From: Pseudomonadota bacterium
GTDB lineage: Bacteria; Pseudomonadota; Gammaproteobacteria; Steroidobacterales; Steroidobacteraceae
DNA length: 64,000 nt
Direction of reading: 5' to 3'
Assembly: GCA_023391815.1 (NCBI GenBank)
Contig: JAEWAF010000023.1
Location: 14,663 to 78,662, forward strand
Part shown: positions 5,955 to 56,720 of the stretch, in pieces
How the letters are laid out: each line of letters starts with the position of its first letter
Position numbering within the stretch: position 1 is the stretch's first letter
Notes under the pieces: model-generated
Database searches by the model: none
Told to the model about the DNA's origin: nothing
What the model saw: the letters and a program-made list of their open reading frames with translations, nothing else
Program-made: the position numbers and the translations under genes

Positions 5955-6989
5955 TCAGCTGCCAGCGACCGTCGGATAGCCCGCCTCACGCCAGGCTTTC
6001 ATTCCACCGTCCAAGGCCACCGCGCCCTTGAAGCCCATCTGTCGCAACGTGGCGGTCGCCAGCGTCGACACTCTGCCGAACTCACAATAGACCAGAATCC
6101 GACGCGTCGGATCGGGCAGCTCCTGATTCACGCGCAACTCCAACTGCCCGCGCGGCAGGTGCTGTGCGCCTTGAATGTGACCTTCCTGGAACGCATCGCG
6201 CTCGCGTACGTCGAGCACGATGAAATCACATCTGTCGCTCTCGACGCACGCCTTCAACTCCGAGAGCGACATGAAAGGCACAGCCGCGGCCGCTTCGGCC
6301 AACATCTGCGCGACCGTTTTGCCGCCTGTCATGTTCGTACGCAGTGCCTCGGTGATATGCGTCGGCATCGTCAGATTGAGGTTCTGCATCATCTCGATGA
6401 AAGCGCCGCGATCGCGTTGTTGAAGGCGCGGGTTCTCGGCGAGCTCCTGGCCGATGGTCGTGTGCGTACGACCTTTGTATTCATGGGCCGGAAAGACTTT
6501 CGTCCCGGGGTCCAGCTTCAACACGTGGTTGAAGAGGCTGTCGTAGAGCGCACTGGCATCGCCGGTCGGCAGGTCAGTGCGACCGGTCGCGCCGATGAGT
6601 AAGGTATCGCCGGTGAAGACGCGATCCTGCACTGTCAGACACATGGAATCGCTCGTATGCCCGGGCGTGTGCATCGCCTGAATTCGCAGCTTGCCGACGA
6701 CCAGCAATTCGCCGGTTTGCAGCCGCAGATCGACGAACGGGGCGGGGCTCGCGCCATGCATCACCACCGGAACATTGAGCTGGCGGGCCAACTCCTGCGT
6801 GCCAGAGAAATGATCCGCGTGTGTATGAGTATCCACCAGATACTTGATTCGCAGCCCATGCCGCGCGGCCACGGCGAGATAACGATCGATCTGGCTCAGC
6901 TCGGGATCGATCAACGCCGCGGCGCAGGTCTCTTCACAGCCAACGAGATAGGAGCGGCATCCCCCGGAGACCACGGTTTCGAACAACAT
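5955..6989 (-). CDS. Metallo-beta-lactamase-fold (persulfide dioxygenase-like) protein fused to a rhodanese domain
   Basis: MLFETVVSGGCRSYLVGC...VDTHTHADHFSG (HxHxDH) in the N-terminal half. The C-terminal rhodanese has the active-site loop VYCEFGRVS. Start moved to the internal ATG at 6989, because the 39-aa upstream extension looks non-coding. Confidence 0.85.
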   Translation of the reverse strand: MLFETVVSGGCRSYLVGCEETCAAALIDPELSQIDRYLAVAARHGLRIKYLVDTHTHADHFSGTQELARQLNVPVVMHGASPAPFVDLRLQTGELLVVGKLRIQAMHTPGHTSDSMCLTVQDRVFTGDTLLIGATGRTDLPTGDASALYDSLFNHVLKLDPGTKVFPAHEYKGRTHTTIGQELAENPRLQQRDRGAFIEMMQNLNLTMPTHITEALRTNMTGGKTVAQMLAEAAAAVPFMSLSELKACVESDRCDFIVLDVRERDAFQEGHIQGAQHLPRGQLELRVNQELPDPTRRILVYCEFGRVSTLATATLRQMGFKGAVALDGGMKAWREAGYPTVAGS

Positions 6990-41740: not shown

Positions 41741-44722
41741 TCAGAACGTGGCAGCCACGCCGAGATAGATCCGGCGATCGTCCAGGTACGAGCTGTACAA
41801 CCGTCCCGGGTTCGTTCGATAGAAGCTGTTGATCTCGCGGGTGAGATTCACACCTTCGAACGTCAGCTGAAAGTTGTCATTGATCCGGAACGACGCCGAC
41901 GCATCCACCTGCCCTCGCGCATCCGCGTAGTTGCTGCCCCCTGACGCAATCGACCCGCCATTCGTCATGTACTCGCTGCGATAGTTGTACGCGACGCGTC
42001 CACTGAATGGGCCGCGCTCGTAGTACACGACCGCATTCGCACTGTGCTCGGACGAATTCGGGATCGGCAAGGTCCGGCCCGTCAGCTCGTCGATCTCCGG
42101 CGTCTCGCTGTCCGCATAGGTATACGTCAACGCGTAACCGAAGCCATCGAACGGCTGGGGCAACATCGTGAGCGCGTGCTGATAGTTCAGCTCGATGCCT
42201 TGGATCTTGCCGTCCTTGCCATTCACCGGCCGGCCGATCACATAGGTGTACGCGGCCGGCCCGGTCAACGTGTTGTTCGGCGCCTCCGGATGTTCCTCGA
42301 CCACTTCGACAGAAGTGGTGAACGCCGAAACATCTTTATAGAACGCACCCACCGCCAGCAAACTGGCCGGCGCGAAGTACCACTCGACCGTGGTATCGAA
42401 CTGCGTGGCCCGGAACGGATTCAGATCGGGGTTGCCCGAAAAGCCCGTCATCGAAACCGGCTGCAACGAAATCCCGACGCCGGTGCTGGTCAGATCCGGG
42501 CGCGCCACGACCTTCGCTGCCGCCAACCGGAGCCGTAGATCGTCACGGAGGTCAAATATGAGATTCAGATTGGGCAGCGTATCCGAGAAAGACTTGCCGG
42601 CCCGCGCCTCGATCGCCTGGTTGTTGACGATGGTGTAGCCGAACGACTCGCGATCGGCATTCACCTGGCGCACGCCCAGATCGCCCGTCATCGGCACGCC
42701 GAACACATCGGTGCCGAATCGGACCATCGCGAAAAACGCCTCGGTGGTCTGCTCCACTTCATTGATGGTGGCCTTGGCGCCCGGAGTGTCGAAAGACACC
42801 GGCGTTGCACCCAATGCGCCGCGGATTCGGTTGAAGTCCACCGAGCCGGTCAACACCTGGCGCGGAAAGCTGCCGCTCTCGCCAGGAAACATTCCACCCC
42901 GCACCCCGGTGTAGTTCAGGCCGGGCACTTCGGTCGCGAGCAACGGCGTGCCCGGGGTCGGATCGCGACTGGCCAGCGAAGGGTATGTCGATAACGGATT
43001 GCCACCGAACACCTCGATGGTCTCGGTGCGCGCGCCGACCTTGACCGATCTGAAGAACCCGTCGAGCTGATACTCGACGTCGAAGTCCGCATCGTGACCC
43101 TTGTTCTCGGCGACGTAATCGACATCGAAGGTCGTATAGACCTCGTACTGCGAGGGATCGTAGATGTCATAGTTCGCGTTGATGCCGTAGTTCGGCGACA
43201 CATTCGAACCGGCTGCGTCGTATGTCACATTGGCGACATTCCCCGCGCGCTGCCTGGTGACCAGTACGTTATCGTTGCCCGAGTTGTTATTACCGCCGTC
43301 GCCGCCAAGACCAGCGCCCTCGCCTTCGCTCATGGACGCGTTGAAGTTTACGGTCCAGCGATCCCTGCTCCAGTTGACGTTGCCGCTCAGGTACTGATTC
43401 TCGGAGTACGAGTCGCCGCCGTAAATCACCGGGCGCACGGTGACACCCGAGAAGTTTCCCGAGACCAGCGTGCCACTCGCGTCGATCACGCCGTCGGTGA
43501 TGTTGTTGTTGAGAATGGTCTGCTGCACCGAGCGCACGCGGTCGGTGTCACGACGCGACTTCACCCCTTCCAGCGTGAACGTCAGCTCATCGATCGGCCG
43601 CCACTGCGCCGAAGCGTTCACCGAGTAACGCTCGTCCTCGTACGTGTTCGACCAGCTCATCAGTCGCAGCGGCCGGAAGAACGTGTCATTCACGCCGTCC
43701 CCGGTCGCATCCACGTTGGACACCTGCGTCCAGCCGCCGGATTGATAGATGTCGCTCGCGCCCGTCGAGTTGGAATAAGAGCCGCTGAGCAACACGCCGA
43801 ACTTGCGATCCGCGAACGTGTGAGCGATGAAACCCGAGACCTTCTCGCCCCACTCTTCCGCGCGATCCGCGTAGGATGTTTGTAAACGGCCGGAGATGAC
43901 CGAGTCCGCCAGATCGAGCGGTCGCTTGGTGCGCAGATTGATCACGGCACCCAGCCAGCCTTCGACCAGATCCGCCGAGGGCGCTTTGATCACATCCACA
44001 CCCGCGAGCAGCTCTGGCGAGACGTCCGCCAGATTGGGATCGCCGTTGCGCGCGCTGCCGATGAAACTCTTGCCGTTGAGCAATAGCTTGTTCAGCCCGA
44101 GGCCGCGCACGGTAATGGACTTGCCCTCACCCTCGACGCGCGTGACCTGCACACCGGGAATACGACTCAGCGTTTCCGCGATGTTTTGATCGGGCAGCTT
44201 GCCGATATCTTCGGCGGAGATGGAGTCCATGATGCGGGTGGCATCGCGCTTCACCTCGATGGCGTCGGCGATGGAGCTGCGAATGCCCACGACGGTGATT
44301 TGCTCGAGCACCGGATCGGAGGTGGCCGCACTCTCCTGACCACGATTGTCTTCCGCGGCGGATGCCGGCTCCGATTCAGCCGGCGCCGACTGACTCCGGG
44401 TCGACGATTCCTGCTGAGCGCTCGCCAGCACCAGCACGACATCGGATGACGTGCGCTCATGGCGCAACCCCGTTCCAGACAGCAAATATTCGAGCGCCTG
44501 ATCCGCCGTCATCGAGCCGCGCACACTCGGCGCTCGACGATCCGCAACCACGGTTGGATCGAACACCAGCTCGGTGCGGGTCTGACGACCGAGCGCGGTC
44601 AACGATTGCGCCAGGTTGCCGCTCTCGATCTCGATGTTTGTTTGTTCGCTCGCTTGCGCGAAGGCGTTGCCGACCAGCGCGAGCGCGCACACGCCGCCCG
44701 TGGCCCATTGAACTCTGTGCAC
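41741..44722 (-). CDS. TonB-dependent transducer (receptor with N-terminal STN signalling domain)
   Basis: STN block IEIESGNLAQSLTALGRQTRTELVFDPTVV...MTADQALEYLLSGTGL, plug (ISAEDIGKLPDQNIAETLSRIPGVQV), barrel, terminal ...YLGVAATF. GTG at 44722 with an AGGGGGAAG SD preferred over the ATG at 44854, which overlaps fecR by 32 nt. Confidence 0.9.
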   Translation of the reverse strand: MHRVQWATGGVCALALVGNAFAQASEQTNIEIESGNLAQSLTALGRQTRTELVFDPTVVADRRAPSVRGSMTADQALEYLLSGTGLRHERTSSDVVLVLASAQQESSTRSQSAPAESEPASAAEDNRGQESAATSDPVLEQITVVGIRSSIADAIEVKRDATRIMDSISAEDIGKLPDQNIAETLSRIPGVQVTRVEGEGKSITVRGLGLNKLLLNGKSFIGSARNGDPNLADVSPELLAGVDVIKAPSADLVEGWLGAVINLRTKRPLDLADSVISGRLQTSYADRAEEWGEKVSGFIAHTFADRKFGVLLSGSYSNSTGASDIYQSGGWTQVSNVDATGDGVNDTFFRPLRLMSWSNTYEDERYSVNASAQWRPIDELTFTLEGVKSRRDTDRVRSVQQTILNNNITDGVIDASGTLVSGNFSGVTVRPVIYGGDSYSENQYLSGNVNWSRDRWTVNFNASMSEGEGAGLGGDGGNNNSGNDNVLVTRQRAGNVANVTYDAAGSNVSPNYGINANYDIYDPSQYEVYTTFDVDYVAENKGHDADFDVEYQLDGFFRSVKVGARTETIEVFGGNPLSTYPSLASRDPTPGTPLLATEVPGLNYTGVRGGMFPGESGSFPRQVLTGSVDFNRIRGALGATPVSFDTPGAKATINEVEQTTEAFFAMVRFGTDVFGVPMTGDLGVRQVNADRESFGYTIVNNQAIEARAGKSFSDTLPNLNLIFDLRDDLRLRLAAAKVVARPDLTSTGVGISLQPVSMTGFSGNPDLNPFRATQFDTTVEWYFAPASLLAVGAFYKDVSAFTTSVEVVEEHPEAPNNTLTGPAAYTYVIGRPVNGKDGKIQGIELNYQHALTMLPQPFDGFGYALTYTYADSETPEIDELTGRTLPIPNSSEHSANAVVYYERGPFSGRVAYNYRSEYMTNGGSIASGGSNYADARGQVDASASFRINDNFQLTFEGVNLTREINSFYRTNPGRLYSSYLDDRRIYLGVAATF

Positions 44723-44822
44723 TCTTCCCCCTTTCTCAGCTGACGGCCCTTCGGCTCTATATTCCGAAGAACGTGTCGTGCTGAAAAACCCGCCAGCGGC
44801 GCCGACGGATTCAAGCTTGCTA

Positions 44823-45857
44823 TCAGGGATGACGGGCCACCAACGCGAACTCATCGGGGCCGCGATACTCGACCACGACCGGATGCAAGCTGGTCACCGC
44901 TTCCAGAAATCTGCGCTGGCTGTTGGTACGGAACACACCGGAGATCAGCAAATTCGACAGCCGCGGGTCGTCGATGCGAATGGTCTGCGCCGAGTATCGA
45001 TTGAACTCCGCGACCGCGTCGGCCAGCGTGGTGTTGTCGAACTCGATCAGGCCGTCACGCCATTTGAGCAGCCGTTCCTGATTCTCCGCGGCCGTACGCA
45101 CGACTTCCTTCTCCGTTGCGACCAGCGTCTCGCCCGCGTTGAGATGAATACTCTCTCTGGCCTCGGCCGCTACCGGCAGCACCGAGCCCGATTGGGCGGC
45201 ATTCTCGACGACCACGCGCCCCTCGACGAGCAGCACTTCCACACGCTTGTCGTCGAGCCGCACGTCGAACGCCGTGCCCACGGCGACGATCTGCTTCCCG
45301 CCGGCGACGACGACGAACGGCCGCGACGGATCTTTCGCAACATTGAAGAACGCCTGGCCCCGCAGTACTTCCACCGTTCGCTGACGACCGTCGAACGCGA
45401 CGTCAAGATCGGTGTCCGTGTTGAGCGTGATCGCCGAGCCGTCCGGCAAAGTCACATCGAGCTTTTCGCCGCGACGGGTGACGTAGTCCGGCGCTCCTCT
45501 CGCATAGAGCGAGGCAACGGGCCGGTCCCGAACGGCAACGAACACTCCCACGCCAATCAGCAGCAACGCCAGCGCCGCGGCGATTCCTCTCAGCCCGAAC
45601 CACGATCGCTCGGGTTGATAGCGAAGCGCCGCGCGGCGCAGAGCATCCAGATGAGGATCGTCGGGCGCGGCATCCAGAATCTGCATGGCCGACAGCGCCC
45701 GCTCGTACGCCGCTTCGTGCTGGGGCGATTGATTGCGCCACGCTTCGAACGCCCCCCGTTCCTCATCTGAAACATTGTCGGCATCGAGGCGTGCGACCCA
45801 ACGCGCAGCCGCTTCGGCGGGTGAGAGGTCTGCCGGGATGGAACGAGCGCGCATCAT
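44823..45857 (-). CDS. FecR-family anti-sigma factor/sigma regulator
   Basis: AARWVARLDA...ERGAFEAWRNQSPQHEAAYE, one TM (IAAALALLLIGVGVFVAV), FecR domain (TLPDGSAITLNTDTDL...RGQAFFNVAKDPSRPFVV..GKQIVAVGTAFDV). ATGA overlap with the sigma gene. Confidence 0.9.
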   Translation of the reverse strand: MMRARSIPADLSPAEAAARWVARLDADNVSDEERGAFEAWRNQSPQHEAAYERALSAMQILDAAPDDPHLDALRRAALRYQPERSWFGLRGIAAALALLLIGVGVFVAVRDRPVASLYARGAPDYVTRRGEKLDVTLPDGSAITLNTDTDLDVAFDGRQRTVEVLRGQAFFNVAKDPSRPFVVVAGGKQIVAVGTAFDVRLDDKRVEVLLVEGRVVVENAAQSGSVLPVAAEARESIHLNAGETLVATEKEVVRTAAENQERLLKWRDGLIEFDNTTLADAVAEFNRYSAQTIRIDDPRLSNLLISGVFRTNSQRRFLEAVTSLHPVVVEYRGPDEFALVARHP

Positions 45858-46387
45858 GGCTTCCCGTTCAGGCGCAGATCGAGATGGGCGACGGCGCGCG
45901 CCATATGCTTCTCGATCGTGCTTATCGGCATACGCAGACGCCTGGCGATGTCGGCGTAACGCATGCCCTCCAGCCGTCGCAAAAGAAATATGGTGCGCGT
46001 GACCTCGGGCAACTCCAGCATCGCCGACGTGGCCTTCTCCAGGCTCTGCTTCCCCAGCAGCACCCGCTCGGGCGTGGAATCGTCTTTGAGGTCGGGCAGC
46101 TCGGCCTCGATCTCGTCGTGCGCGCTCGCCTGGCGCACCTGGCGCTTGCGCAGCCAATCGTTGAGCACGCTTTGCGCAGTCTGGAAGACGTAGCCCGCGA
46201 CGATCTGCGAGCCATCGGTGTTCACCTTGCGAACCAGGCGCACGAACACGTCCTGCACGAGGTCATCGATCTCGTGCTGTTCCTTGACCCGTTTGCTGAA
46301 AAAGCGTCCGAGCGCGGGGCGAAACTGCCTGGCGAGCAGCTCAGCTTCGGCGCCTTCGCCACGGCGTGCCTGTCCCGGCGCATCCAT
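45854..46387 (-). CDS. ECF sigma factor (FecI-like)
   Basis: IDDLVQDVFVRLV (region 2) and LPEVTRTIFLLRRLEGMRYADIARRLRMPISTIEKHMARAV (region 4). Internal ATG at 46387. Confidence 0.9.
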   Translation of the reverse strand: MDAPGQARRGEGAEAELLARQFRPALGRFFSKRVKEQHEIDDLVQDVFVRLVRKVNTDGSQIVAGYVFQTAQSVLNDWLRKRQVRQASAHDEIEAELPDLKDDSTPERVLLGKQSLEKATSAMLELPEVTRTIFLLRRLEGMRYADIARRLRMPISTIEKHMARAVAHLDLRLNGKP

Positions 46388-46467
46388 CTCGACCCGACTC
46401 TCCGCTCGACCGGGCGCAGCCCGCCCTGACTTTAAGAACGCGCCCGACGCGGAAATCCGCCAACGCT

Positions 46468-46929
46468 TCAGGAAGCGTCGATCTCGATGGGCGTGCCTTC
46501 GACGACGCGCCCTTCCTCGCATTTGACTTTGCTGACCGGGATGACCGAGATCTTGCCCGACGCGCGCACCGTCGCGACGCGGCTCTTGTCGAGCTGGTAC
46601 TCCGAATGGAACTCCAGCGCATTCTCGGGCTCCACCGCCCACTGCACTTCGTGCGCCACTTCCGGCTCGACCTCGACCGGCGGTCGGTACACCCAGCATT
46701 GACCGGGAGTGAGCTCGTTCCGACCGATCTTCTTCCACTGGCCGGTCGTGCGCCGCTCGACGTGCAACACCACCTGCCCGCCCGGCTGCACCTTCGCCGG
46801 CGTGGCCGATCCGCTCAATTCGACGGATTGCGTTCCCTCGAGCACGTAAACCGAGGGGCCGCGCTGTTCGCCACAGCCGGCGGCCAGCGCGGAAATGACG
46901 GGAATGACAAGGATGGCTACGGATCGCAT
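46468..46929 (-). CDS. Hypothetical lipoprotein
   Basis: MRSVAILVIPVISALAAGC lipobox. 153 aa, beta-rich. No family recognised. Confidence 0.7.
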   Translation of the reverse strand: MRSVAILVIPVISALAAGCGEQRGPSVYVLEGTQSVELSGSATPAKVQPGGQVVLHVERRTTGQWKKIGRNELTPGQCWVYRPPVEVEPEVAHEVQWAVEPENALEFHSEYQLDKSRVATVRASGKISVIPVSKVKCEEGRVVEGTPIEIDAS

Positions 46930-47024
46930 AGGGGTGGTCTTTACCTCATCGCTATGTTGACGGAATCATCCACCCGAGGCCAGCCGGGCGTGATACTTCG
47001 CGGGCCGCGCCGTATATAGCCTTC

Positions 47025-47555
47025 ATGGTGATGGAACAAAAAGCCATACCCGGCGCCCGCCCCGCGGAGCCGGCGGACAAAGTGGACTGGGACGCCGTGT
47101 ACGCGGACCAGCTGCCACGGATTTACAACTATTTCCGCTTCAGGTTGGGCGGCGGGGCCGAGGTCGAGGACCTGACCGCCCGCACCTTCGAGAAAGCCTG
47201 GTCGGCCCGCTCTCGGTACCGACGCGATCTCGCCGGTTTCTCGACCTGGCTGTTCCGGATCGCGCAGAACGTCGGCGTCGACTACCTCCGCTCCCGGCGA
47301 CCGCATGCGCCCTTGGACGAGGCATTCGATGTGGTGATCGAGATCACGCCCGAAAGCGAGGCGGCTCGCGATTCCGACCTGGTGCGACTGGGCCGCCTCA
47401 CGGCTCGACTGTCCGAGCGTGAGCAAGAGCTGATCGCATTGAAATACGGCGCCGCGCTCAACAATCGCGAGATCGCGGGCCTCACGGGATTGAGCGAATC
47501 GAACGTCGGTACGCTGTTGTATCGAATCGTTCAGACGCTGCGTTCGCAATGGTGA
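47025..47555 (+). CDS. ECF (sigma-70 family) RNA polymerase sigma factor
   Basis: Region 2 (LPRIYNYFRFRLGGGAEVEDLTARTFEKAW...FSTWLFRIAQNVGVDYLR) and region 4 (LSEREQELIALKYGAALNNREIAGLTGLSESNVGTLLYRI). Confidence 0.9.
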   Translation: MVMEQKAIPGARPAEPADKVDWDAVYADQLPRIYNYFRFRLGGGAEVEDLTARTFEKAWSARSRYRRDLAGFSTWLFRIAQNVGVDYLRSRRPHAPLDEAFDVVIEITPESEAARDSDLVRLGRLTARLSEREQELIALKYGAALNNREIAGLTGLSESNVGTLLYRIVQTLRSQW

Positions 47556-47570
47556 GCACAGGAAGCAGCG

Positions 47571-48980
47571 ATGCATGACGAATTCCTAACTTCACTTCGC
47601 CGCCAGCCGCCGGCTCGATTTGCCCGCGAGCTGCAGCGAAAGCTGCAAGCGCAGGAGGCGGAGGCCAGGCGGCGTTCCTGGTCGTTGTGGACCAGGACCA
47701 TTGCGTTCCTGATCGTCGGGTCCGCCGCGTTTGCCGGTGGATTCCTGGTTAGCGAACATCGGTCCGCCGGGCATGCCGGCTCAGGGCAGTCGCAAAGTCA
47801 AAGCGCCCCGGAGAGTAAAGCCGCGTCGCCGGACTATCGTCCACCACGGATCAATCCCACGTTCGTGCCAGAGGGCAGCGATACAAACGCTTTCCATGCC
47901 TCACGGCAAAGCAGCGCCGCGTCGACGACCAGCGGTGGCTCGGCTCAAGCCCGACGCGCAACAGATGTCTCCAACGCCGCACCGAATACGCCGGCGCAAA
48001 CAGCAAGCGGCGAGTTGATCCGAACCCCGCAATCGCGCGTGCGGGTTGCAACCTCGCCGCTCACCGACGCTTTGGTGCGGCGGAGAGTTTTGCGATCCGA
48101 CGCGCCAACCGTCGAAGTCGAAACGATGGAAGCGGACTCCGCCTTCGCCGCGTTGTGCATGCCTCGGGGCGAGGCGCAATTCGACATGGTTGTGACTTCA
48201 CGCCGGATGATCAGCACCGAGTTCGCCAATTGCCAGGACAACGCCGGCGCCAACATCTCCGAACTGAAGCTCGGCTACCAGGCGCTGGTGCTGACGAGCG
48301 CCCGGGACAGCGTTCACATGAAGCTGACCCTGAGCGATGTCTATCTCGCGGTGGCGAAACAGGTCTCCGTCCCGATGGAGCCCGAGCGTTTCATTCCCAA
48401 CCCGCACATCACGTGGGATCAGATCGACAACCTCGAATATCGCCCGATCCAGGTGTTCGGACCGGCGCGCGGCACACCTCGCCGCACGCTGTTCGAAATC
48501 CTGCTCCTCGAGCCCGGCTGCAATGCCAATCCTGCGATCAAAGCCCTGGAAAGCAGCGACCCGGAACGCCATGCCGATCTGTGCCATAGCCTGCGAAGCG
48601 ATCGCGCGTACGTGGAAGTCGAACAGAATTCGGTGCTGATTCCACAATATCTGTGGAGCGACCCGAATCCCTTAGTGCTCGTCGACTATCAGTTCTACCG
48701 CGACAATCGAGGGCAGCTCGCCGGCAGCGCAATCGAAGGACCCGAACCCTCCTACGCGACCATCGCCGACGGTTCCTATCCTCTGGCGCGCCCCGTTTAT
48801 CTATATGCGGATCGAGCACGCACCGCCCGTTCGCGTCAGGCTTACACCACCATGAGCGATCTGGAACGGCTGTGGATTATCGCGGACCCGAGCTTCGTCG
48901 AGCTCGACGAGCGCGAAGCCAGGGAGCAGCGAACGCGCCGAATGCGAAATGTTTCCGAATCGGACCTCAACAACAAATAA
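47571..48980 (+). CDS. Single-pass membrane protein: putative anti-sigma N-terminus fused to a PstS/PhoT-like type-2 periplasmic binding domain
   Basis: Starts 15 nt after the sigma stop with an AGGAAG SD. About 40 cytoplasmic aa, TM (TIAFLIVGSAAFAGGFLV), low-complexity linker, then KLGYQALVLTS...ITWDQID...IQVFGPARGTPRRTLFE...DGSYPLARPVYLYA, resembling phosphate-binding-protein-family blocks. Confidence 0.7.
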   Translation: MHDEFLTSLRRQPPARFARELQRKLQAQEAEARRRSWSLWTRTIAFLIVGSAAFAGGFLVSEHRSAGHAGSGQSQSQSAPESKAASPDYRPPRINPTFVPEGSDTNAFHASRQSSAASTTSGGSAQARRATDVSNAAPNTPAQTASGELIRTPQSRVRVATSPLTDALVRRRVLRSDAPTVEVETMEADSAFAALCMPRGEAQFDMVVTSRRMISTEFANCQDNAGANISELKLGYQALVLTSARDSVHMKLTLSDVYLAVAKQVSVPMEPERFIPNPHITWDQIDNLEYRPIQVFGPARGTPRRTLFEILLLEPGCNANPAIKALESSDPERHADLCHSLRSDRAYVEVEQNSVLIPQYLWSDPNPLVLVDYQFYRDNRGQLAGSAIEGPEPSYATIADGSYPLARPVYLYADRARTARSRQAYTTMSDLERLWIIADPSFVELDEREAREQRTRRMRNVSESDLNNK

Positions 48981-48993
48981 GGAGCCCCCGACG

Positions 48994-49593
48994 ATGAAGT
49001 CCCATGCACAGACCCTCTCGCACCTCTGCGCCGTGCTCGCGCTCTTGATCGTGCCCAACGCACACGCGCAAAGCTCGACGGCCCCCGCCAGCGAGGGTGT
49101 CGATATCGAACGAATCATCGCAGGCACCGCCAAGATGACCGGCAAGAAGTTTCTGGTCGATCCGCGCATTCGGGCGCAGGTGACATTGGTCGGTCTCGAT
49201 CCCGACCGGCTCGACTATGCCACGCTGCTCTCCGTGCTACAGATGCATGGCTTCGCCGCCTTCGACGACGGTAAATATACTCGCATCGTCCCGGACGCCT
49301 CCGCGCGACAGCAGCCCATCCCATTGCTGACCGGCAACGGCTCTTATGCCGACGCCGAATACGTCAGCCGTGTCATCACCGTAAAGAGCGTGCCCGCCGC
49401 GCTGCTCGTTCCTGTTCTGCGTCCGCTGCTTCCGCAACAAGCGCACATGGTGGCAATGCCTTGCACGAACACGCTGCTGCTCGTGGACACGTTCGCTAAC
49501 GTCAAGCGGGTCGAGAAAATCGTAAACTCTCTCGACACCGGCGAACCCTTCAAGCCCGAGAAGTGTGGCGGTATCAAGCTCAAGGCAGACTGA
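48994..49593 (+). CDS. Exported stand-alone secretin N0-N1 domain protein (GspD N-terminus-like, no secretin barrel)
   Basis: Signal peptide (LCAVLALLIVPNAHA). N0 block MTGKKFLVDPRIRAQVTLV....YATLLSVLQMHGFAAFDDGKYTRIVP. N1 block VITVKSVPAALLVPVLRPLLPQQAHMVAMPCTNTLLLVDTFANVKRVEKIVNSLD. Ends about 20 aa later. AAGGAG SD. Confidence 0.8.
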   Translation: MKSHAQTLSHLCAVLALLIVPNAHAQSSTAPASEGVDIERIIAGTAKMTGKKFLVDPRIRAQVTLVGLDPDRLDYATLLSVLQMHGFAAFDDGKYTRIVPDASARQQPIPLLTGNGSYADAEYVSRVITVKSVPAALLVPVLRPLLPQQAHMVAMPCTNTLLLVDTFANVKRVEKIVNSLDTGEPFKPEKCGGIKLKAD

Positions 49594-49681
49594 GATCGAC
49601 GGAACTCCTTTCGGCTAAGGACATTACTGACTTCATGGCTTAAGATCCGCCGCAATCCGCTCGCCGGCCCGAGGCACGCCC

Positions 49682-50266
49682 ATGAAATATTCAGCGTTAC
49701 TTCTGTCGATGATGTTATTGGCGGGTTGCGCGGCGCAGCCCACGGTGAAGTCGTGGATCGATCCGAAGTCCTCGGTCACGATCACCGCGCAGACCGAACC
49801 GCTCGTGCTCGTTCGTGCCGAGCCCGCGCCGAGCCTGAACGAGCGGGACTATGCGCAGTTGACCGCGATCGAAGTGAATCGCATGGGCGAGCGCAAGTTG
49901 TATCTGGTGGCAATTCTGTGGAGCTCCGCCGAGCTGTGGGCCGATCAGCAGCGAGGCTTGCCCAGCGTGTTTCAGCAGATCGATGTGAACGTCGGCGATC
50001 GCACCGTCGCGCTCACGCCGCACACCGGCGACGCGTCCGAGTTGGGCATCAGCGAGGCGTTGCCGCTGCCCATTCCCGGTTCGAGCCAGATCTATTTTCC
50101 CATCAGTCGCGACGATCTTGGCGCCATCTCGCGCTCGAGCAAAATTCAACTCACCGCGCGCGGCAAGCCCGATGCGCCCCGTCGTTATGAGGAATGGCAA
50201 GACGGTCGGCGGAGCTTGAACGACTTTCTCGGTCAGCTGCCCGAGCTCAATAAGCCGCAATCCTGA
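49682..50266 (+). CDS. Hypothetical lipoprotein
   Basis: MKYSALLLSMMLLAGC lipobox. 194 aa. No family recognised. Confidence 0.7.
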   Translation: MKYSALLLSMMLLAGCAAQPTVKSWIDPKSSVTITAQTEPLVLVRAEPAPSLNERDYAQLTAIEVNRMGERKLYLVAILWSSAELWADQQRGLPSVFQQIDVNVGDRTVALTPHTGDASELGISEALPLPIPGSSQIYFPISRDDLGAISRSSKIQLTARGKPDAPRRYEEWQDGRRSLNDFLGQLPELNKPQS

Positions 50267-52129
50267 CTAGTGCTGAATCCCCGGCACTCGGATCGAACGC
50301 TCATCGCCGATCTCGAGCGGGATGATCCCAAACTGGCGGCGCCACGGCGAAGTCACGTCGTTGCCGAACATCGTCGACCAGTACTGACCCTGTTTGTCAC
50401 GAAACACCGTGCCATGCCCGGCGTGCGGCGCGCCGAGCCGGCGTTTGGTGTAAGGACCGAACAAGGATTTCGAGGTGCCATACATCATGTCGTAAGTCCC
50501 ATGAGTGCGCAGCGGACCATGCCACTCGGCGCCGGTGACGAAATAGATATCGCCGACCTTGATGATCGCGTTGCCTTCGTAACCGATGTGTGCGCCATCG
50601 GTGTCGACCAGACGATGCACCGGACCGTCGAATGCGTCGCGCTTCGCATTGAGCTTGCCGAGGTTGCCACCGCCCCAGAGCAGATACAGATCGCTGCCGT
50701 CCTCGAACAGAAATCCGTCGATGCCGTCGACGAAGTGCTGGCGGGTGACGTTCTCGTAGGGGCCTTCTGCTTTGCCGGTGGTCGATCGATAGATCCAGGT
50801 CTTGCCGCCGACGTCGCGCTCCATGATGGACAAAGCGATGTAGTACGTTTTATCGCCCGCCACCCAGGCGATCTCGGGCGCCCACAGCTCGGCAGTGTTC
50901 TTGAAAGCGCGACCCAGGCCTTTCCAATTGAAAACCGTTCCGTCCCGGTGCCATGCCTTCAAATCCGGCGAGCGATACAACGTGATACCGCCGTTGGGAT
51001 ACGTGTAGCCGAATCCTCCTTGCGTGCCGACCAGGTAATACTGGCCATCCCCGCCCAAGGTGACCGACGGATCGCGCATCGTCTCAGCGGTGAGCAACGG
51101 ACGCGCGGACGCGACGGCGCTATTCTCGGTGAGAATGTTCTGTGACTGACGCAACCGACCATCCGGCGCGCGCTCGAGTGGCACCAGACCGACCTGCTCG
51201 CAGAACAACGCGAAGTTGTCCTCACACTTCGGGTTGTAACTCGCATATAGCGCGCCGTGCTCATCACGCACGATGGACGACTGCCCTGCGTGAGGAACCG
51301 CGAGATAGCGCAATGAGAACGGCCCGTACGGCGAGGACGCTTCAGCCATGAACACATCGTCGGTCGGACTGCGCATCCGACCGGTGACTTCATTGGCCAC
51401 CAGCACGTAGTGACCGTTGTCCTTGAACATCGAGGCGCCTGCGGAGCCGACGCGCGTGCGTACCGGCCAGTCCTTGCCTGGCGGAGGCTGGGTCGCGAAC
51501 AACGCCGGATCAGGCTTCAGAAAACGTGGCATTTCGGCGAGGCGCTGTAGATCTGGCGCCAAGCGCGCGATCGTCCCCGCGCCCCACAACAAATACGCCG
51601 CGCCATCATCGTCGATAAACAACGATGGATCGGAAGCGTTCTCGACGAGGCAGGGCGAACTCGCGTATGCCTCCGCCGGACGCGCCACCGATCCACGCGC
51701 GACTCGCGCGCAGCCGCTCGAGTCGGCATAAGTGAGATACAGCGAATCGCCGTGAGCGGAGACGTCTGGCGCAGCGATCCGCTCACCTTTCGCATGCACG
51801 ATCCCGAGCGAGCGCCAGTTGCGACGGTCTGTCGACGTCCAGAGCTGAATTCCGTCGCGTGGCAGATCGCGCAGTACCGTGCCGGTCAGAAACCATTCGT
51901 TATTGGCGGCGCGAGCGATGGACGCATCGAGCAGCGCTCTGGACGAAAACAACGACTCGACCGGCCGTGCGCTCGTCGACGGCAGCACCGTCGCGTTTTT
52001 ATCCATCGACGGATGATCGAGAAAGATGTCATCGGCGGGCGGCTTGCGCTTCGCCTCACCGAATGCCGGCGCACTCAGCGCCAGCATCACCGCCAGCGTT
52101 ATGATTCCTTGTCCAAGGCATCCCGTCAT
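50267..52129 (-). CDS. Glycoside hydrolase family 43-like protein (two five-bladed-propeller-like modules)
   Basis: The second module has MRDPSVTLGGDGQYYLVGT, ELWAPEIAW, DGFLFEDGSDLYLLWG, YEGNAIIKVGDIYFVTG and GHGTVFRDKQGQYW (GH43 Asp/Asp/Glu block pattern). The first module is more divergent. The ATG at 52129 shares a base with the sulfatase stop (TAATG). Confidence 0.85.
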   Translation of the reverse strand: MTGCLGQGIITLAVMLALSAPAFGEAKRKPPADDIFLDHPSMDKNATVLPSTSARPVESLFSSRALLDASIARAANNEWFLTGTVLRDLPRDGIQLWTSTDRRNWRSLGIVHAKGERIAAPDVSAHGDSLYLTYADSSGCARVARGSVARPAEAYASSPCLVENASDPSLFIDDDGAAYLLWGAGTIARLAPDLQRLAEMPRFLKPDPALFATQPPPGKDWPVRTRVGSAGASMFKDNGHYVLVANEVTGRMRSPTDDVFMAEASSPYGPFSLRYLAVPHAGQSSIVRDEHGALYASYNPKCEDNFALFCEQVGLVPLERAPDGRLRQSQNILTENSAVASARPLLTAETMRDPSVTLGGDGQYYLVGTQGGFGYTYPNGGITLYRSPDLKAWHRDGTVFNWKGLGRAFKNTAELWAPEIAWVAGDKTYYIALSIMERDVGGKTWIYRSTTGKAEGPYENVTRQHFVDGIDGFLFEDGSDLYLLWGGGNLGKLNAKRDAFDGPVHRLVDTDGAHIGYEGNAIIKVGDIYFVTGAEWHGPLRTHGTYDMMYGTSKSLFGPYTKRRLGAPHAGHGTVFRDKQGQYWSTMFGNDVTSPWRRQFGIIPLEIGDERSIRVPGIQH

Positions 52130-53832
52130 TACGGCTCGCTGCGTTGACGTGCGTTCACCGAGGCCGACCACTCGTTCCACAGCTTCGCCATCGCCGCCGC
52201 GCGCTTCGGCTCCGCTTTGACGAGATCGCGCGTCTCGCTGCGATCGTTCGCCAGGTGATAGAGCGACCACGGCGCATACACCTTAGACTGCGGGCCCGGC
52301 GCACGGGCCACCAACTTCCAATCGTCGAGGATGACCGCACGCGACCCCTCGTGCTCGAAGAACAGCGGTTTGCCGCGGGACATCTTCTTGCCCTTGATCG
52401 CTGGCACCAGGGAGACGCCGTCGACCGGCGGCTGCCCCTCGGTGCGCGGCTTCACGCCGGCCAACTCATAAAACGTTGGCGCGATATCCATGATGTGCCC
52501 CAGGCTGTCCACGCGAGTACCGGGCTTGAGCTTGATTCCTTTCGGCCAGCTGATGATGAACGGCGTGTGCACGCCGCCGTCGTATGCTTCAGCCTTCCAA
52601 TAACGCCACGGCGTGTTGGCCGCATTCGCCCAGAACGAGCCGATGCCTGCCATGCTCGTGTCCGATCCGAGGGTCGGTTGATCCGCGCCGTAATGAATCT
52701 TTCTGCCGTCCCGTGTTTCGCTCTGGCGATCGTAGCCCGGTTGATAGCCGCGGCTGCCGGTCATCGTTTCCGGTGAAGCGCCATTGTCGGCGAGAAACAC
52801 GATCACCGTGTTCTCATATTGGCCGGTGCGTTTCAGCGCATCGATGACTCGACCGATGCCCTGGTCCATGACATCGATCATCGCGGCATGTACGGACATC
52901 TTCGCCGATGCCTGCGCACGCTCGGTCGCGCTCAACTGATCCCACGGCTTCTCCGGATTCACCGCCCAATCGCCGGACAGTCGGGTCTTCGGCGTGGTGG
53001 CGGGATCGATGAGGCCCAGCTGCACCAATCTCGCGTAACGTGCTTCGTGAAGTTGTTCCCAGCCGCCGTCATATCGGCCGCGATACTTCGCGATGGCACG
53101 CTCGGGCGCATGCAACGGCCAGTGAGGCGCGGTGTAAGCGAGATACATCAGGAACGGACGCTCGTCCCTGGCGAACGACTCGATGTCGCGGACGGCGCGA
53201 TCGCTCAGCGCATCGGTGAGATAAAAATCCTTCGGCACGGCACGCACCGGCTCGAATCCTTCGACCAGCGAGAACGGATCGAAATAGCTGGAAACGCCCC
53301 AGACCAGACCGTAGTGAGTCTCGAAGCCGCGCGCCGCCGGGTACGTCGAGCGATCGCCGAAGTCACGGTCCGGATACGCCTGATGATTGATCCACTTCAG
53401 ATGCTCCGTGGGATCGGCAATTGGCGTAGCCCGCGTGAGGTGCCACTTGCCGACCATCGCCGTTCGGTACTGAGCATCCTTGAATTCCTGCGCGATCGTG
53501 CGCACGTCGACGGACATGCTGCCGCCGTTCTCGCCCATGCCCACCCGGTGCGCGTACCGACCGGTAAGCAAGTTGGCTCGCGAAGGCGAGCAGCGAGCCG
53601 AGTTGTAAAAGTTCGTGAACTGCAAACCGGCCGACGCGAGGCGGTCGATGTTGGGGGTGTCGATCTCACCGCCATAGGCGCCCACATCGGAATAACCGAG
53701 GTCGTCCGCCATGATGATCAGAAAGTTGGGACGCTCATCGGCGGCTTGCGCCGCCGATGAGGTGTGTGCCCAGAGCGCGGCGCCGATGGCCAGCGCCGCT
53801 CCAACCTGCTTGAGCAGACCGTTCAATGCCAT
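52129..53832 (-). CDS. Arylsulfatase (formylglycine-dependent, S1 family), exported
   Basis: PNFLIIMADDLGYSDVGAYGGEI and the FGly motif SARCSPSRANLLTGR. Signal peptide. Starts 3 nt after the TBDR stop. Confidence 0.92.
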   Translation of the reverse strand: MALNGLLKQVGAALAIGAALWAHTSSAAQAADERPNFLIIMADDLGYSDVGAYGGEIDTPNIDRLASAGLQFTNFYNSARCSPSRANLLTGRYAHRVGMGENGGSMSVDVRTIAQEFKDAQYRTAMVGKWHLTRATPIADPTEHLKWINHQAYPDRDFGDRSTYPAARGFETHYGLVWGVSSYFDPFSLVEGFEPVRAVPKDFYLTDALSDRAVRDIESFARDERPFLMYLAYTAPHWPLHAPERAIAKYRGRYDGGWEQLHEARYARLVQLGLIDPATTPKTRLSGDWAVNPEKPWDQLSATERAQASAKMSVHAAMIDVMDQGIGRVIDALKRTGQYENTVIVFLADNGASPETMTGSRGYQPGYDRQSETRDGRKIHYGADQPTLGSDTSMAGIGSFWANAANTPWRYWKAEAYDGGVHTPFIISWPKGIKLKPGTRVDSLGHIMDIAPTFYELAGVKPRTEGQPPVDGVSLVPAIKGKKMSRGKPLFFEHEGSRAVILDDWKLVARAPGPQSKVYAPWSLYHLANDRSETRDLVKAEPKRAAAMAKLWNEWSASVNARQRSEP

Positions 53833-53835
53833 CGC

Positions 53836-56577: not shown

Positions 56578-56654
56578 GCTGTTTTTACCCCCCATTAAAG
56601 ACGACGTGCTGGCAGCGTCGAGGCCGCGTACTGGAACATACGACCTAAACGTCT

Positions 56655-56671
56655 GACAAGTATTATTTGTC
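56655..56671. promoter_or_regulatory. Operator-like 8-1-8 inverted repeat in the divergent TBDR / GH43-like promoter region
   Basis: GACAAGTA-T-TATTTGTC (7 of 8 complementary) inside the only A/T-rich stretch of this intergenic region. Confidence 0.3.
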
Positions 56672-56720
56672 TTATAAATCATTTCAAGCTACGCTGTCCA
56701 CACTGACGGGGGAAACAGCC

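Follow-up and report, generated by a model that had tools for sequence, protein, structure and literature searches.

A conserved three-gene ECF sigma locus with a PstS-like putative anti-sigma factor and a free secretin N0-N1 protein

Layout, conservation and promoter of the locus

On the forward strand of the 64-kb window (the whole stretch of DNA analysed here), four co-directional genes raise the question of whether they constitute one envelope-signalling module, and of what a free piece of a secretin could do behind an anti-sigma factor. In the open reading frame list, these genes encode an ECF sigma factor (gene 1, 47025-47555), a putative anti-sigma factor with a PstS-like domain (gene 2, 47571-48980), a free secretin N0-N1 protein (gene 3, 48994-49593) and a lipoprotein (gene 4, 49682-50266). 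Reading of the sequence gave successive gaps of 15, 13 and 88 nt, with the Shine-Dalgarno motifs AGGAAG ahead of gene 2 and AAGGAG ahead of gene 3, and both coordinates and letters agree with the arrangement described in the initial annotation.

That annotation had treated the four genes as one module and suggested examining whether their order extends beyond this strain. As judged from sequence comparison, the conserved unit is three genes and not four, namely the ECF sigma factor, the single-pass PstS-like anti-sigma and the free N0-N1 protein. We found this trio, or as much of it as a short contig shows, in 26 further loci (L001-L004, L006, L008-L011, L013 and L014; L081-L084, L087 and L088; and nine metagenome loci), with anti-sigma identities down to ~28%. 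Since genes 1-3 occur as a group in so many other loci, the arrangement is not due to chance. The trio carriers are Steroidobacter-like soil bacteria. Our literature search found no description of a sigma factor combined with a PstS-fold anti-sigma and a free N0-N1 protein, in agreement with the earlier claim of novelty.

The identification of gene 1 as an ECF (group 4) sigma factor of 176 aa, consisting of the sigma-2 and sigma-4 domains only, was borne out by Pfam matches to Sigma70_r2 (1e-13) and Sigma70_r4_2 (1e-8), and by a score of 84 bits against the NCBIfam sigma70-ECF superfamily model (cutoff 43). The best NCBIfam subfamily match, the BldN-type TIGR02952, stayed under its cutoff (106 bits vs 206), and the nearest solved structures, 6dxo and 2q1z, are both distant. 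Orthologues from Steroidobacter and Peristeroidobacter share 86-91% identity with the protein.

Upstream of gene 1, a conserved ECF-type promoter, GTGATACTTC-N11-CGTATATA (46990..47018, forward strand), stops 6 nt short of the sigma ATG. It was present upstream of the sigma gene in 16/16 loci examined, at a constant distance from the ATG, and in metagenomes the sigma gene came next in at least 32 of the 58 matches to the full pattern. Within the 64-kb window, the core TGATAC-N15-GTATA has one exact match, and a PWM scan revealed no second site. Because the promoter ends so close to the ATG, with no Shine-Dalgarno motif in between, the sigma transcript is probably leaderless; the promoter's position further suggests that the operon is autoregulated.

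The membrane protein, its PstS-like domain and the adjoining lipoproteins

Gene 2 encodes a predicted single-pass membrane protein. Its cytoplasmic N-terminus (residues 1-36, 47571..47678, forward strand) carries the motif M(N/H)DEFLxxLRRxPPxxFAxxLxxxL, of which M1, D3, F5, L6, R10, P13, F17, L21 and L25 are invariant in our alignments, and AlphaFold2 (AF2) places helices at residues 3-9 and 15-49. No match to this segment was identified among the Pfam anti-sigma families or in the PDB. A profile of residues 1-61 retrieved 343 cluster representatives, and the 102 proteins scanned for the sensor behind this N-terminus included 83 with PBP_like_2, 10 with cytochrome c', 3 with FGE-sulfatase and 1 with 3-keto-disaccharide hydrolase domains. 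Four kinds of periplasmic domain are joined to the N-terminal motif and transmembrane helix, in each case beside a sigma gene. We infer that these ~36 residues form a minimal anti-sigma-like module; as the cytoplasmic part is very short and lacks a known anti-sigma domain, this putative role rests on position and modularity.

The single transmembrane helix (~residues 40-62, 47688..47756; hydrophobic stretch WTRTIAFLIVGSAAFAGGFLVS) is kept in the alignments and is continuous with the AF2 helix 15-49. It is followed by a low-complexity periplasmic linker of variable length (~residues 63-153, 47757..48029), in which the motif YRPRxLxPxFVPEG is found in the Steroidobacter clade; residues 50-153 were modelled with pLDDT < 50. 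At the opposite end, the C-terminal tail (48891..48980, including the stop codon) bears a conserved terminal motif, ending ..SESDLNNK in this protein and ..ELKL, ..DLQP or ..ELKF in relatives, with D465 and L466 nearly invariant in the close family.

Between linker and tail lies a type II periplasmic-binding-protein domain (~residues 155-440, 48033..48890). The PstS-like character ascribed to it earlier is real: residues 157-417 match PBP_like_2 in Pfam (1e-13), phmmer aligned the protein to the PstS structure 9JWY (6e-21), and the top Foldseek matches were all PstS or phosphate-binding proteins (9jwy, 1e-23). In addition to fold and detectable homology, the domain shares with PstS proteins such as 9JWY and SAR11 PstS a conserved disulfide and the motif YP..RP.Y.Y. 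Unlike them, it is tethered to the membrane behind an anti-sigma N-terminus, is encoded without pstCAB and does not conserve the phosphate ligands. In 9JWY, phosphate is bound by S32, S33, T34, T61, S83, G174 and T175 (PMC12421899), which correspond, in order, to A160, T161, S162, A188, S210, P303 and R304 of gene 2; four positions are replaced, one Ser is identical and two are hydroxyl swaps. Across 61 family representatives all seven positions vary, and the helix-N-terminal G-T ligand pair becomes P-(L/R/T/A). The phosphate site is therefore degenerate, and the proposal that the module senses an anion is unsupported.

Gene 4, which encodes a 194-aa lipoprotein (lipobox MKYSALLLSMMLLAGC, LLAGC) with no family in Pfam or NCBIfam, adjoins the conserved module and, by the evidence of gene order, is outside it. 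Its homologues were found only in loci L001-L004 (Steroidobacter and Peristeroidobacter), 0.7-2 kb from the N0-N1 gene and separated from it by a DUF2157 gene (L001) or by a second ECF sigma gene and a 195-aa gene (L003 and L004). In this strain, the 88-nt gap shows no terminator-like site, and gene 4 may be co-transcribed with the trio. That short gap, together with the clear PstS-like fold and the retention of D205, S210 and R211 of a D..(A/T)SR motif in the close family, is what speaks for a four-gene version in which the lipoprotein is integral and phosphate or another anion is the ligand sensed by the PstS-like domain. Given the distribution of the lipoprotein, the replaced and variable ligand positions and the absence of pstCAB genes nearby, we regard this version as very improbable.

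A second lipoprotein gene (46468..46929, reverse strand; 153 aa, lipobox ..ALAAGC) is divergently oriented across a 95-bp spacer from gene 1, as had been noted. It has no family in Pfam, is conserved only in L001-L004 and lies outside the module; since it heads a minus-strand FecI-FecR-transducer cluster, it probably belongs to that neighbouring cluster.

The free N0-N1 protein

Gene 3 encodes an exported protein of 199 aa that comprises a signal peptide (~1-25, ..NAHA/Q), an N0 domain (~35-104) and an N1 domain (~123-183), as the initial annotation had read it. Pfam identified the GspD N0 domain PF21305 (2e-13) and Secretin_N PF03958 (4e-8), and the protein aligned to positions 5-157 of the 600-position NCBIfam GspD model (1e-31). 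Lacking the N2, N3, secretin (pore) and S domains, it cannot form a pore. An upstream ATG at 48949 was rejected as the start codon, since homologues begin at the position equivalent to the ATG at 48994. The nearest relatives, by sequence and structure, are the N0-N1 domains of type II secretion system (T2SS) GspD proteins such as XcpQ and PulD, whose partner is the GspC HR domain: phmmer matched XcpQ N0-N1 at 2e-25, the N1 motif VPxLRPLxPQ is common to gene 3 and XcpQ, and the best Foldseek matches of the AF2 model (mean pLDDT 82) were XcpQ, PulD and GspD N0-N1 (6hcg, rmsd 2.9 A over 155 columns). Unlike GspD, gene 3 is encoded behind an anti-sigma gene and not in a gsp operon, besides its missing domains. 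The suggested kinship with STN signalling domains held in part, in that the analogy with STN/anti-sigma contacts is legitimate (PMC11637429), while the Pfam STN model gave no match and the T2SS N0 model alone did.

Could the gene be what is left of a decaying full-length gspD, in an arrangement without function? GspD N-termini are indeed its closest relatives by sequence, at 40-46% identity to the N0-N1 of full-length Steroidobacteraceae GspD. Yet nearly all of its 83 homologues have 185-220 aa (a few are shorter fragments), with signal peptides intact, the homologues group in a clade apart from full-length GspD, the place behind the anti-sigma is kept down to ~28% anti-sigma identity, and no relative carries a full-length gspD at that position. 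The remnant explanation, which the initial annotation had itself raised, is effectively refuted by this intact family, its separate clade and its conserved position.

The presence of the N0-N1 gene follows the type of sensor. It was found in 26/26 PBP-type loci with enough downstream sequence, and in 0/5 relatives that share the anti-sigma N-terminus but carry a cytochrome c' or FGE-sulfatase sensor. Across 21 trios, PBP and N0-N1 distances co-vary beyond sigma distances (partial Mantel r = 0.57, p ~2e-4, a test that is anticonservative for related sequences).

Intact N0-N1 genes also occur without sigma and anti-sigma genes (L005 and L012), and a second free N0-N1 clade (clade B) is never sigma-linked, so the protein may have a function of its own. 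Moreover, its strong T2SS-type sequence features could mean T2SS partners instead of the anti-sigma. In a rival reading, the sigma/anti-sigma pair would only set the amount of free N0-N1, which would act as an output on the type II secretion machine and tune secretion; it might, for instance, compete with GspD N0 for binding to the GspC HR domain, or become part of the secretin vestibule or cap it. Consistent with this idea are the sigma-free genes, the identity to GspD with VPxLRPLxPQ kept, the superposition of the AF2 model on 6hcg, which shows assembled PulD N0-N1 bound to PulC-HR, and the finding that, in the window as in each flank, the operon's own promoter is the only one of sigma type that could be detected. 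However, one would not expect a general output to follow sensor type, and N0-N1 accompanies only PBP-type anti-sigmas; the cytochrome c' and FGE types share the sigma family and promoter yet lack it. T2SS genes were present in none of the loci examined, within the fetched sequence. Regulon genes may lie beyond that sequence. We consider such an output role unlikely.

Alternatively, N0-N1 might be an adaptor that shuttles between the PBP-like domain and an outer-membrane or T2SS component, so that the module would report the assembly state of the secretin/T2SS and loss of the component would trigger the sigma factor. Co-occurrence and the resemblance to T2SS sequences fit this proposal too, as does the precedent of VreA, proposed as a bridge from VreR to an outer-membrane partner in a system whose VreI controls the Hxc T2SS (PMC2729926). 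The adaptor role is entirely inferential, and a conserved linkage to gsp genes is absent in ~30 loci; we rate it as quite unlikely.

Proposed signalling scheme and comparison with known systems

Our preferred reading, held tentatively and at a little under an even chance, is a conserved three-gene envelope-signalling module in which N0-N1 serves as a periplasmic co-regulator of the anti-sigma. STN/N0-fold domains are known to bind the periplasmic domains of anti-sigmas and to guard these against proteolysis (PMC11637429), and VreA is a free periplasmic STN-domain protein that works with an ECF pair (PMC2729926). By this scheme, the ECF sigma factor would be made from its own, probably leaderless, promoter and held at the membrane by the single-pass anti-sigma, whose PstS-like domain or C-terminal tail would be bound by N0-N1, in the manner of RseB with RseA, or of an STN domain or VreA with FecR-type anti-sigmas. 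Bound N0-N1 would shield the anti-sigma against site-1 proteolysis, until N0-N1 is released by an envelope cue, perhaps a change in its binding partner, or closure of the PBP fold by a ligand or a protein. Regulated proteolysis would then set the sigma factor free to re-induce the operon and a putative regulon.

The order of ECF sigma, single-pass anti-sigma and soluble periplasmic protein resembles that of RpoE-RseA-RseB in E. coli and AlgU-MucA-MucB in Pseudomonas. In those systems, site-1 cleavage is prevented by the RseB/MucB-type third protein, which sits on the anti-sigma's periplasmic domain until it is displaced by a signal. In contrast, the proteins described here have no sequence or fold relation to those systems (no MucB_RseB or RseA domain was detected with Pfam in the module proteins), the sensor has a PstS fold, a secretin N0-N1 takes the third place, and the sigma factor differs in both ECF lineage and promoter.

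FecI-FecR-FecA signalling, including PupR/PupB and FoxR/FoxA, likewise brings an STN/N0 fold to an anti-sigma, as we propose here; in those systems, the STN-fold domain contacts the periplasmic part of the anti-sigma by beta-sheet augmentation (PMC11637429). A classical FecI-FecR-transducer example adjoins the module in the window (41741-46400). However, the N0 domain here is of T2SS type and occurs in a free soluble protein instead of within a TonB-dependent transducer, and the anti-sigma lacks FecR, DUF4880 and an STN subdomain of its own.

In the PUMA3 system of Pseudomonas aeruginosa (VreA-VreI-VreR), a barrel-less soluble periplasmic protein of the STN superfamily is also encoded with an ECF sigma/anti-sigma pair. 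VreA differs in being first in its operon and in combining an FpvA-like signalling domain with a TolA/TonB-like C-terminal domain, and VreR is FecR-like; homology to the trio proteins goes no further than fold superfamily and sigma family. PUMA3 is tied to Hxc type II secretion and, via PhoB, to phosphate starvation (PMC2729926; PMC4971064), and both themes recall the present locus, with its T2SS-type N0-N1 and its PstS-like fold. Finally, SigI-RsgI of Clostridium thermocellum similarly joins one anti-sigma N-terminal module to interchangeable extracytoplasmic sensors (PMC10328401), but differs in its sigma family, its anti-sigma domain and its sensors, which are carbohydrate-binding in RsgI, and it has no accessory N0-N1 protein.

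A conserved three-gene module and its surroundings

The locus is laid out as four open reading frames on the + strand: an ECF sigma factor gene (gene 1, 47025-47555) with the Pfam domains Sigma70_r2 and Sigma70_r4_2; the gene of a predicted anti-sigma factor with a PstS-like domain (gene 2, 47571-48980; Pfam PBP_like_2 at residues 157-417, 1e-13); the gene of a free secretin N0-N1 protein (gene 3, 48994-49593), matching the Pfam families GspD N0 (PF21305) and Secretin_N (PF03958); and a lipoprotein gene (gene 4, 49682-50266) with a lipobox and without a Pfam family. The intergenic gaps are 15, 13 and 88 nt, with AGGAAG located 5' of gene 2 and AAGGAG 5' of gene 3. Our analysis reproduced all the coordinates, gaps and Shine-Dalgarno sequences of the initial annotation, and its sigma, PBP-like and N0-N1 domain assignments were borne out by profile HMMs (Pfam). 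The window comes from a Steroidobacter-like gammaproteobacterium, with its best matches in S. flavus, Peristeroidobacter soli, P. agariperforans and S. agaridevorans. Among the related genome and metagenome loci compared with the window (handles L001 to L144), tblastn with the window proteins revealed a sigma gene, an anti-sigma gene of the PstS-like (PBP) type and an N0-N1 gene co-located in L001-L004, L008-L011, L013 and L014, and partially in L006. In PBP-type members with anti-sigma identity down to 28% (L081-L084, L087 and L088), the sigma gene lies upstream and the N0-N1 gene downstream in six of six, and the gene order of the trio is therefore conserved outside this strain. Open reading frames in the fetched loci were called by a simple GC3-based heuristic, with the key genes backed by HMM or tblastn matches; the family members come largely from unbinned metagenome contigs, and the lineage that could be named is Steroidobacteraceae-like Gammaproteobacteria.

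The module had been proposed to contain four genes, of which genes 1-3 are conserved as a unit while the membership of gene 4 was not upheld. Homologs of gene 4 and of the divergent lipoprotein gene (46468-46929, - strand; lipobox) were detected by tblastn only in L001-L004. Between the N0-N1 gene and the gene 4 homolog, L001 carries an opposite-strand DUF2157 gene and L002 a 0.7-kb gap, while in L003 (6643-7796) and L004 (6642-7795), which represent P. agariperforans and S. agaridevorans, respectively, the two are separated by an ECF sigma gene (189 aa) and a gene for a 195-aa protein with no Pfam family found. Since gene 4 is not adjacent to the N0-N1 gene in L001-L004 and is absent from the other loci, it is best described as a syntenic neighbor, and the lipoprotein was rejected as a fourth component on the grounds of poor conservation and intervening genes in relatives. 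It may instead belong with the second sigma and 195-aa pair of L003 and L004, a pair that is absent from the window. No terminator-like site was found in the 88-nt gap between genes 3 and 4, so gene 4 may be transcribed by read-through in this strain. Neither lipoprotein matched a Pfam or NCBIfam family, even at E <= 10.

The divergent lipoprotein gene heads an adjoining, classical cell-surface signaling cluster (41741-46400, - strand) that encodes a FecI-like ECF sigma factor, a FecR/DUF4880 anti-sigma factor and a TonB-dependent transducer, the last composed of STN, Plug and barrel domains. With this FecIRA-type trio next to the module, one locus combines the canonical design, in which STN is fused, with a design in which N0-N1 is free. 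On the other side lies a polysaccharide-utilization-like cluster (50267-56682), composed of a GH43 gene (50267-52270, - strand), a sulfatase gene (52129-53832, - strand) and a TonB-dependent receptor gene (53836-56682, - strand), with a further GH43 gene downstream; this cluster is not kept beside the module in distant loci.

A modular family of predicted anti-sigma factors with a shared promoter

ECF sigma/anti-sigma pairs are among the commonest bacterial signaling devices, and to our knowledge most ECF groups lack a known input. The gene 1 product is a 176-aa protein containing Sigma70_r2 and Sigma70_r4_2 only, in agreement with the sigma-2/sigma-4 composition and the length of ~170-200 aa that define ECF (group 4) sigma factors. 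It scored 84 bits against TIGR02937 (NCBIfam; cutoff 43), with every NCBIfam ECF subfamily model falling under its cutoff. The main text of the ECF reclassification (PMC7826278) contains no PBP, secretin, phosphate or sulfatase context, while its supplementary descriptions may hold an unnamed group entry.

Gene 2 is predicted to encode the cognate anti-sigma factor, as it begins 15 nt after the sigma gene and combines a single transmembrane helix with a conserved cytoplasmic module and, across the family, variable sensors. Its cytoplasmic part spans ~36 residues, carries the motif M(N/H)DEFLxxLRRxPPxxFAxxLxxxL and is predicted as two helices; it is followed by the transmembrane helix and a disordered linker (residues 50-153 have pLDDT <50 in the AF2 model), behind which come the PstS-like domain and a C-terminal tail that is conserved. 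Class I anti-sigma domains (zf-HC2, RsiW, RseA or ChrR type) are ~80-aa cytoplasmic helical bundles. No such domain was found in gene 2, with no Pfam anti-sigma family matching even at E <= 10, and the N-terminus gave no match against the PDB.

A search of 1.84 billion representatives with a profile of residues 1-61 identified the N-terminal motif at the start of 343 proteins. Among 102 longer profile matches, the sensor domains were PBP_like_2 (83), cytochrome c' (10), FGE-sulfatase (3) and 3-keto-disaccharide hydrolase (1). A sigma gene adjoins the motif-bearing anti-sigma gene wherever the context was read. Since one cytoplasmic module is joined to interchangeable sensors, the gene 2 family can be regarded as a modular anti-sigma family. 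Sister systems sharing the sigma family, promoter and N-terminal motif were located at L085:3936-5493 (cytochrome c') and L086:1863-3588 (FGE-sulfatase). In both types, the former also including L093, L121 and L137 as assigned by close sequence resemblance, sigma and anti-sigma genes are present and the N0-N1 gene is absent. Overall, the N0-N1 gene follows the PBP-type anti-sigma gene in 26 of 26 loci (including nine trios from the promoter scan) and other sensor types in none of five, although these loci are phylogenetically related and the counts are therefore not an independent-sample statistic.

The regions upstream of the sigma genes have in common the pattern GTGATACTTC-N11-CGTATATA, whose core TGATAC-N15-GTATA has a single exact match in the window, at 46991-47016. 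GTATA ends 8 nt 5' of the ATG, and all 16 loci compared, among them cytochrome c' and FGE types, keep this promoter-to-ATG distance; no Shine-Dalgarno sequence was seen between promoter and sigma ATG in the window. Because the spacing is fixed across very diverged sequences, the geometry suggests that the module mRNA is probably leaderless. In metagenomes, the full pattern had 58 matches, at least 32 of which lie directly 5' of a sigma gene; the remainder are close to the chance expectation and occur on unrelated, mostly low-GC contigs. Four groups of contigs without a sigma gene downstream of the pattern share flanks within the group (L096/L099/L112/L136, L094/L138, L095/L109 and L108/L141) and probably reflect repeated sampling of chance matches in the same organisms. 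At L144:1205-1500, an intact promoter precedes a sigma gene that carries in-frame stop codons and hence represents a pseudogenized copy of the module's sigma gene. In a search for a regulon, the window and all loci were scanned with the pattern and with a PWM (threshold for the window, weakest true site minus 4 bits); only the operon's own promoter was found, and putative autoregulation of the operon by its sigma factor is likely.

The PstS-like sensor and the free N0-N1 protein

The gene 2 sensor adopts a PstS-type type II PBP fold, as indicated by PF12849 (1e-13), by the closest solved PstS, 9JWY from SAR11 (6e-21), and by Foldseek, in which at least the 40 best matches were all phosphate-binding proteins. 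The phosphate ligands of 9JWY are S32, S33, T34, T61, S83, G174 and T175 (PMC12421899). These residues align with A160, T161, S162, A188, S210, P303 and R304 of gene 2, with S210 the only identity, four replacements and, at the other two positions, an exchange of one hydroxyl residue for another; gene 2 has likewise lost the GTGGG loop and the G-T pair at the helix N-terminus. In 61 PBP-type representatives, all seven positions are variable (for example, P/A/T/V at 303, L/T/A/V at 304 and A/T/S/D at 188), while almost no variation is seen in the fold-defining residues and in two cysteine pairs, and the canonical anion site is therefore free of selection. No ABC transporter genes pointing to an association with pstCAB were found within +/-10 kb of the module or in related loci. 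The ligand mapping thus lends no support to the anion sensing tentatively suggested at the outset, and with four of seven ligands replaced and all seven variable, canonical phosphate sensing by this domain was set aside. Judged from sequence, the domain more likely serves protein contact or binding of another ligand. Alignments A2 and A5 of anti-sigma relatives further display a conserved C-terminal tail in PBP-type members (..SESDL.., ..ELKL, ..DLQP; window 48891-48977) and a linker motif, YRPRxLxPxFVPEG (window 47832-47885), confined to the Steroidobacter clade; either of these elements could constitute a docking or protease-recognition site.

A complete GspD, with N2, N3, C-terminal secretin pore and S domain, comprises about 650-750 aa. 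Gene 3 encodes 199 aa followed by a stop codon, and N2, N3, the secretin pore and the S domain are missing from it. Its product aligns with positions 5-157 of the 600 of the GspD model TIGR02517 (NCBIfam, 1e-31), its closest sequence is the N0-N1 region of XcpQ (2e-25), and its AF2 model (mean pLDDT 82) matches T2SS secretin N0-N1 structures in Foldseek, superposing on PulD in the PulC-HR complex (6hcg) with an rmsd of 2.9 A over 155 columns. The 83 homologs measure 185-220 aa barring a few shorter fragments, have both domains in most cases, and possess signal peptides; within N1, the motif VPxLRPLxPQ is strongly conserved. Within 80 genome loci, the short form occurs in 20 and full-length GspD in the remainder, the GspD reading frames being mostly 660-790 aa, with frameshifts in two long-read assemblies. 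A neighbor-joining tree places the short forms apart from GspD in two clades: clade A, which includes gene 3 and is sigma-linked, and clade B, which is never sigma-linked (L015:2499-3122, L019:5010-5648, L057:5962-6585, L067:5977-6567 and L068 about 6001-6522). Family size, uniform length and phylogeny rule out a decayed gspD fragment, and the gene stands as one for an intact protein.

Clade-B genes are flanked by an ABC-F ATPase gene on one side and a HAMP-PAS-GGDEF-EAL gene on the other. In L015 and L019 they are preceded by a gene for a secreted protein of 250-270 aa without a Pfam family, which was compared as a candidate detached PBP domain and found not to be PBP-like. Within clade A, the N0-N1 gene is intact in L005 and L012 even though sigma and anti-sigma are absent. 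A DHOR di-haem oxidoreductase gene adjoins it in both (L005, 4354-5880; L012, 4510-5793) and recurs in L087 (11956-13410), three genes 3' of a complete trio and beyond a TonB-dependent receptor gene, making DHOR a recurrent association.

STN/N0-fold domains bind the periplasmic domains of anti-sigma factors and shield them from proteolysis when the signal is absent (PMC11637429), and in P. aeruginosa an ECF pair controlling a T2SS works with VreA, an STN-domain protein that is free in the periplasm (PMC2729926). Given these precedents, the rpoE-like gene order, the strict co-occurrence with the PBP type and the co-variation of PBP and N0-N1 distances after control for sigma (partial Mantel r = 0.57, p about 2e-4; a weak test), we tentatively favor, at somewhat below even odds, a role for N0-N1 as a periplasmic co-regulator that would bind either the PstS-like domain or its tail, and would gate regulated proteolysis of the anti-sigma factor. 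The strong T2SS-type sequence signature of N0-N1, its intact sigma-free genes in L005, L012 and clade B, and the lack of further promoter targets in our scans are the facts on which the two main rival readings draw, in which N0-N1 would be either a regulated output acting on the T2SS, which we regard as unlikely, or an adaptor reporting T2SS state, which seems more doubtful still. It is likewise improbable, in our estimate, that N0-N1 shuttles between the PstS-like domain and GspC/GspD, making the module a sigma-factor checkpoint that senses or tunes T2SS assembly or activity. We know of no sigma-factor surveillance circuit for type II secretion.

Comparison with known systems

The module delineates a family that numbers at least 343 clusters at 50% identity and has a previously unmodeled, minimal anti-sigma N-terminus, a recognizable and probably leaderless promoter and swappable sensors, whose main, PBP-type branch has a free-standing secretin N0-N1 protein as an obligate third partner. 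With a soluble protein derived from the T2SS in the place of a TonB-dependent transducer, it would widen the dialogue between STN/N0 domains and anti-sigma factors. A link of sigma-factor signaling to type II secretion also becomes testable, and the sensor clearly exemplifies a PstS fold that was put to new use after its phosphate site had been lost. The promoter and compact parts provide a ready reporter, and the cultured S. agaridevorans, P. agariperforans, P. soli and S. flavus permit experiments.

No published description of the combination of sigma, PstS-like anti-sigma and N0-N1 was found in our literature searches. With rpoE-rseA-rseB the module has in common the gene order of sigma factor, anti-sigma factor and soluble periplasmic protein; gene 3 is analogous to RseB/MucB in gene position and soluble periplasmic location, but has no MucB_RseB Pfam match. 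It differs from the FecIRA type in that gene 2 lacks PF04773 and PF16220, PF07660 (STN) misses gene 3, and the barrel is absent. Each of its parts belongs to a known superfamily, yet the module has no class I anti-sigma domain, phosphate site, pstCAB, secretin pore, FecR, transducer or RseB fold. We regard it as ECF signaling with a putative accessory periplasmic regulator, in a new composition that forms a well-defined and fairly widespread family.
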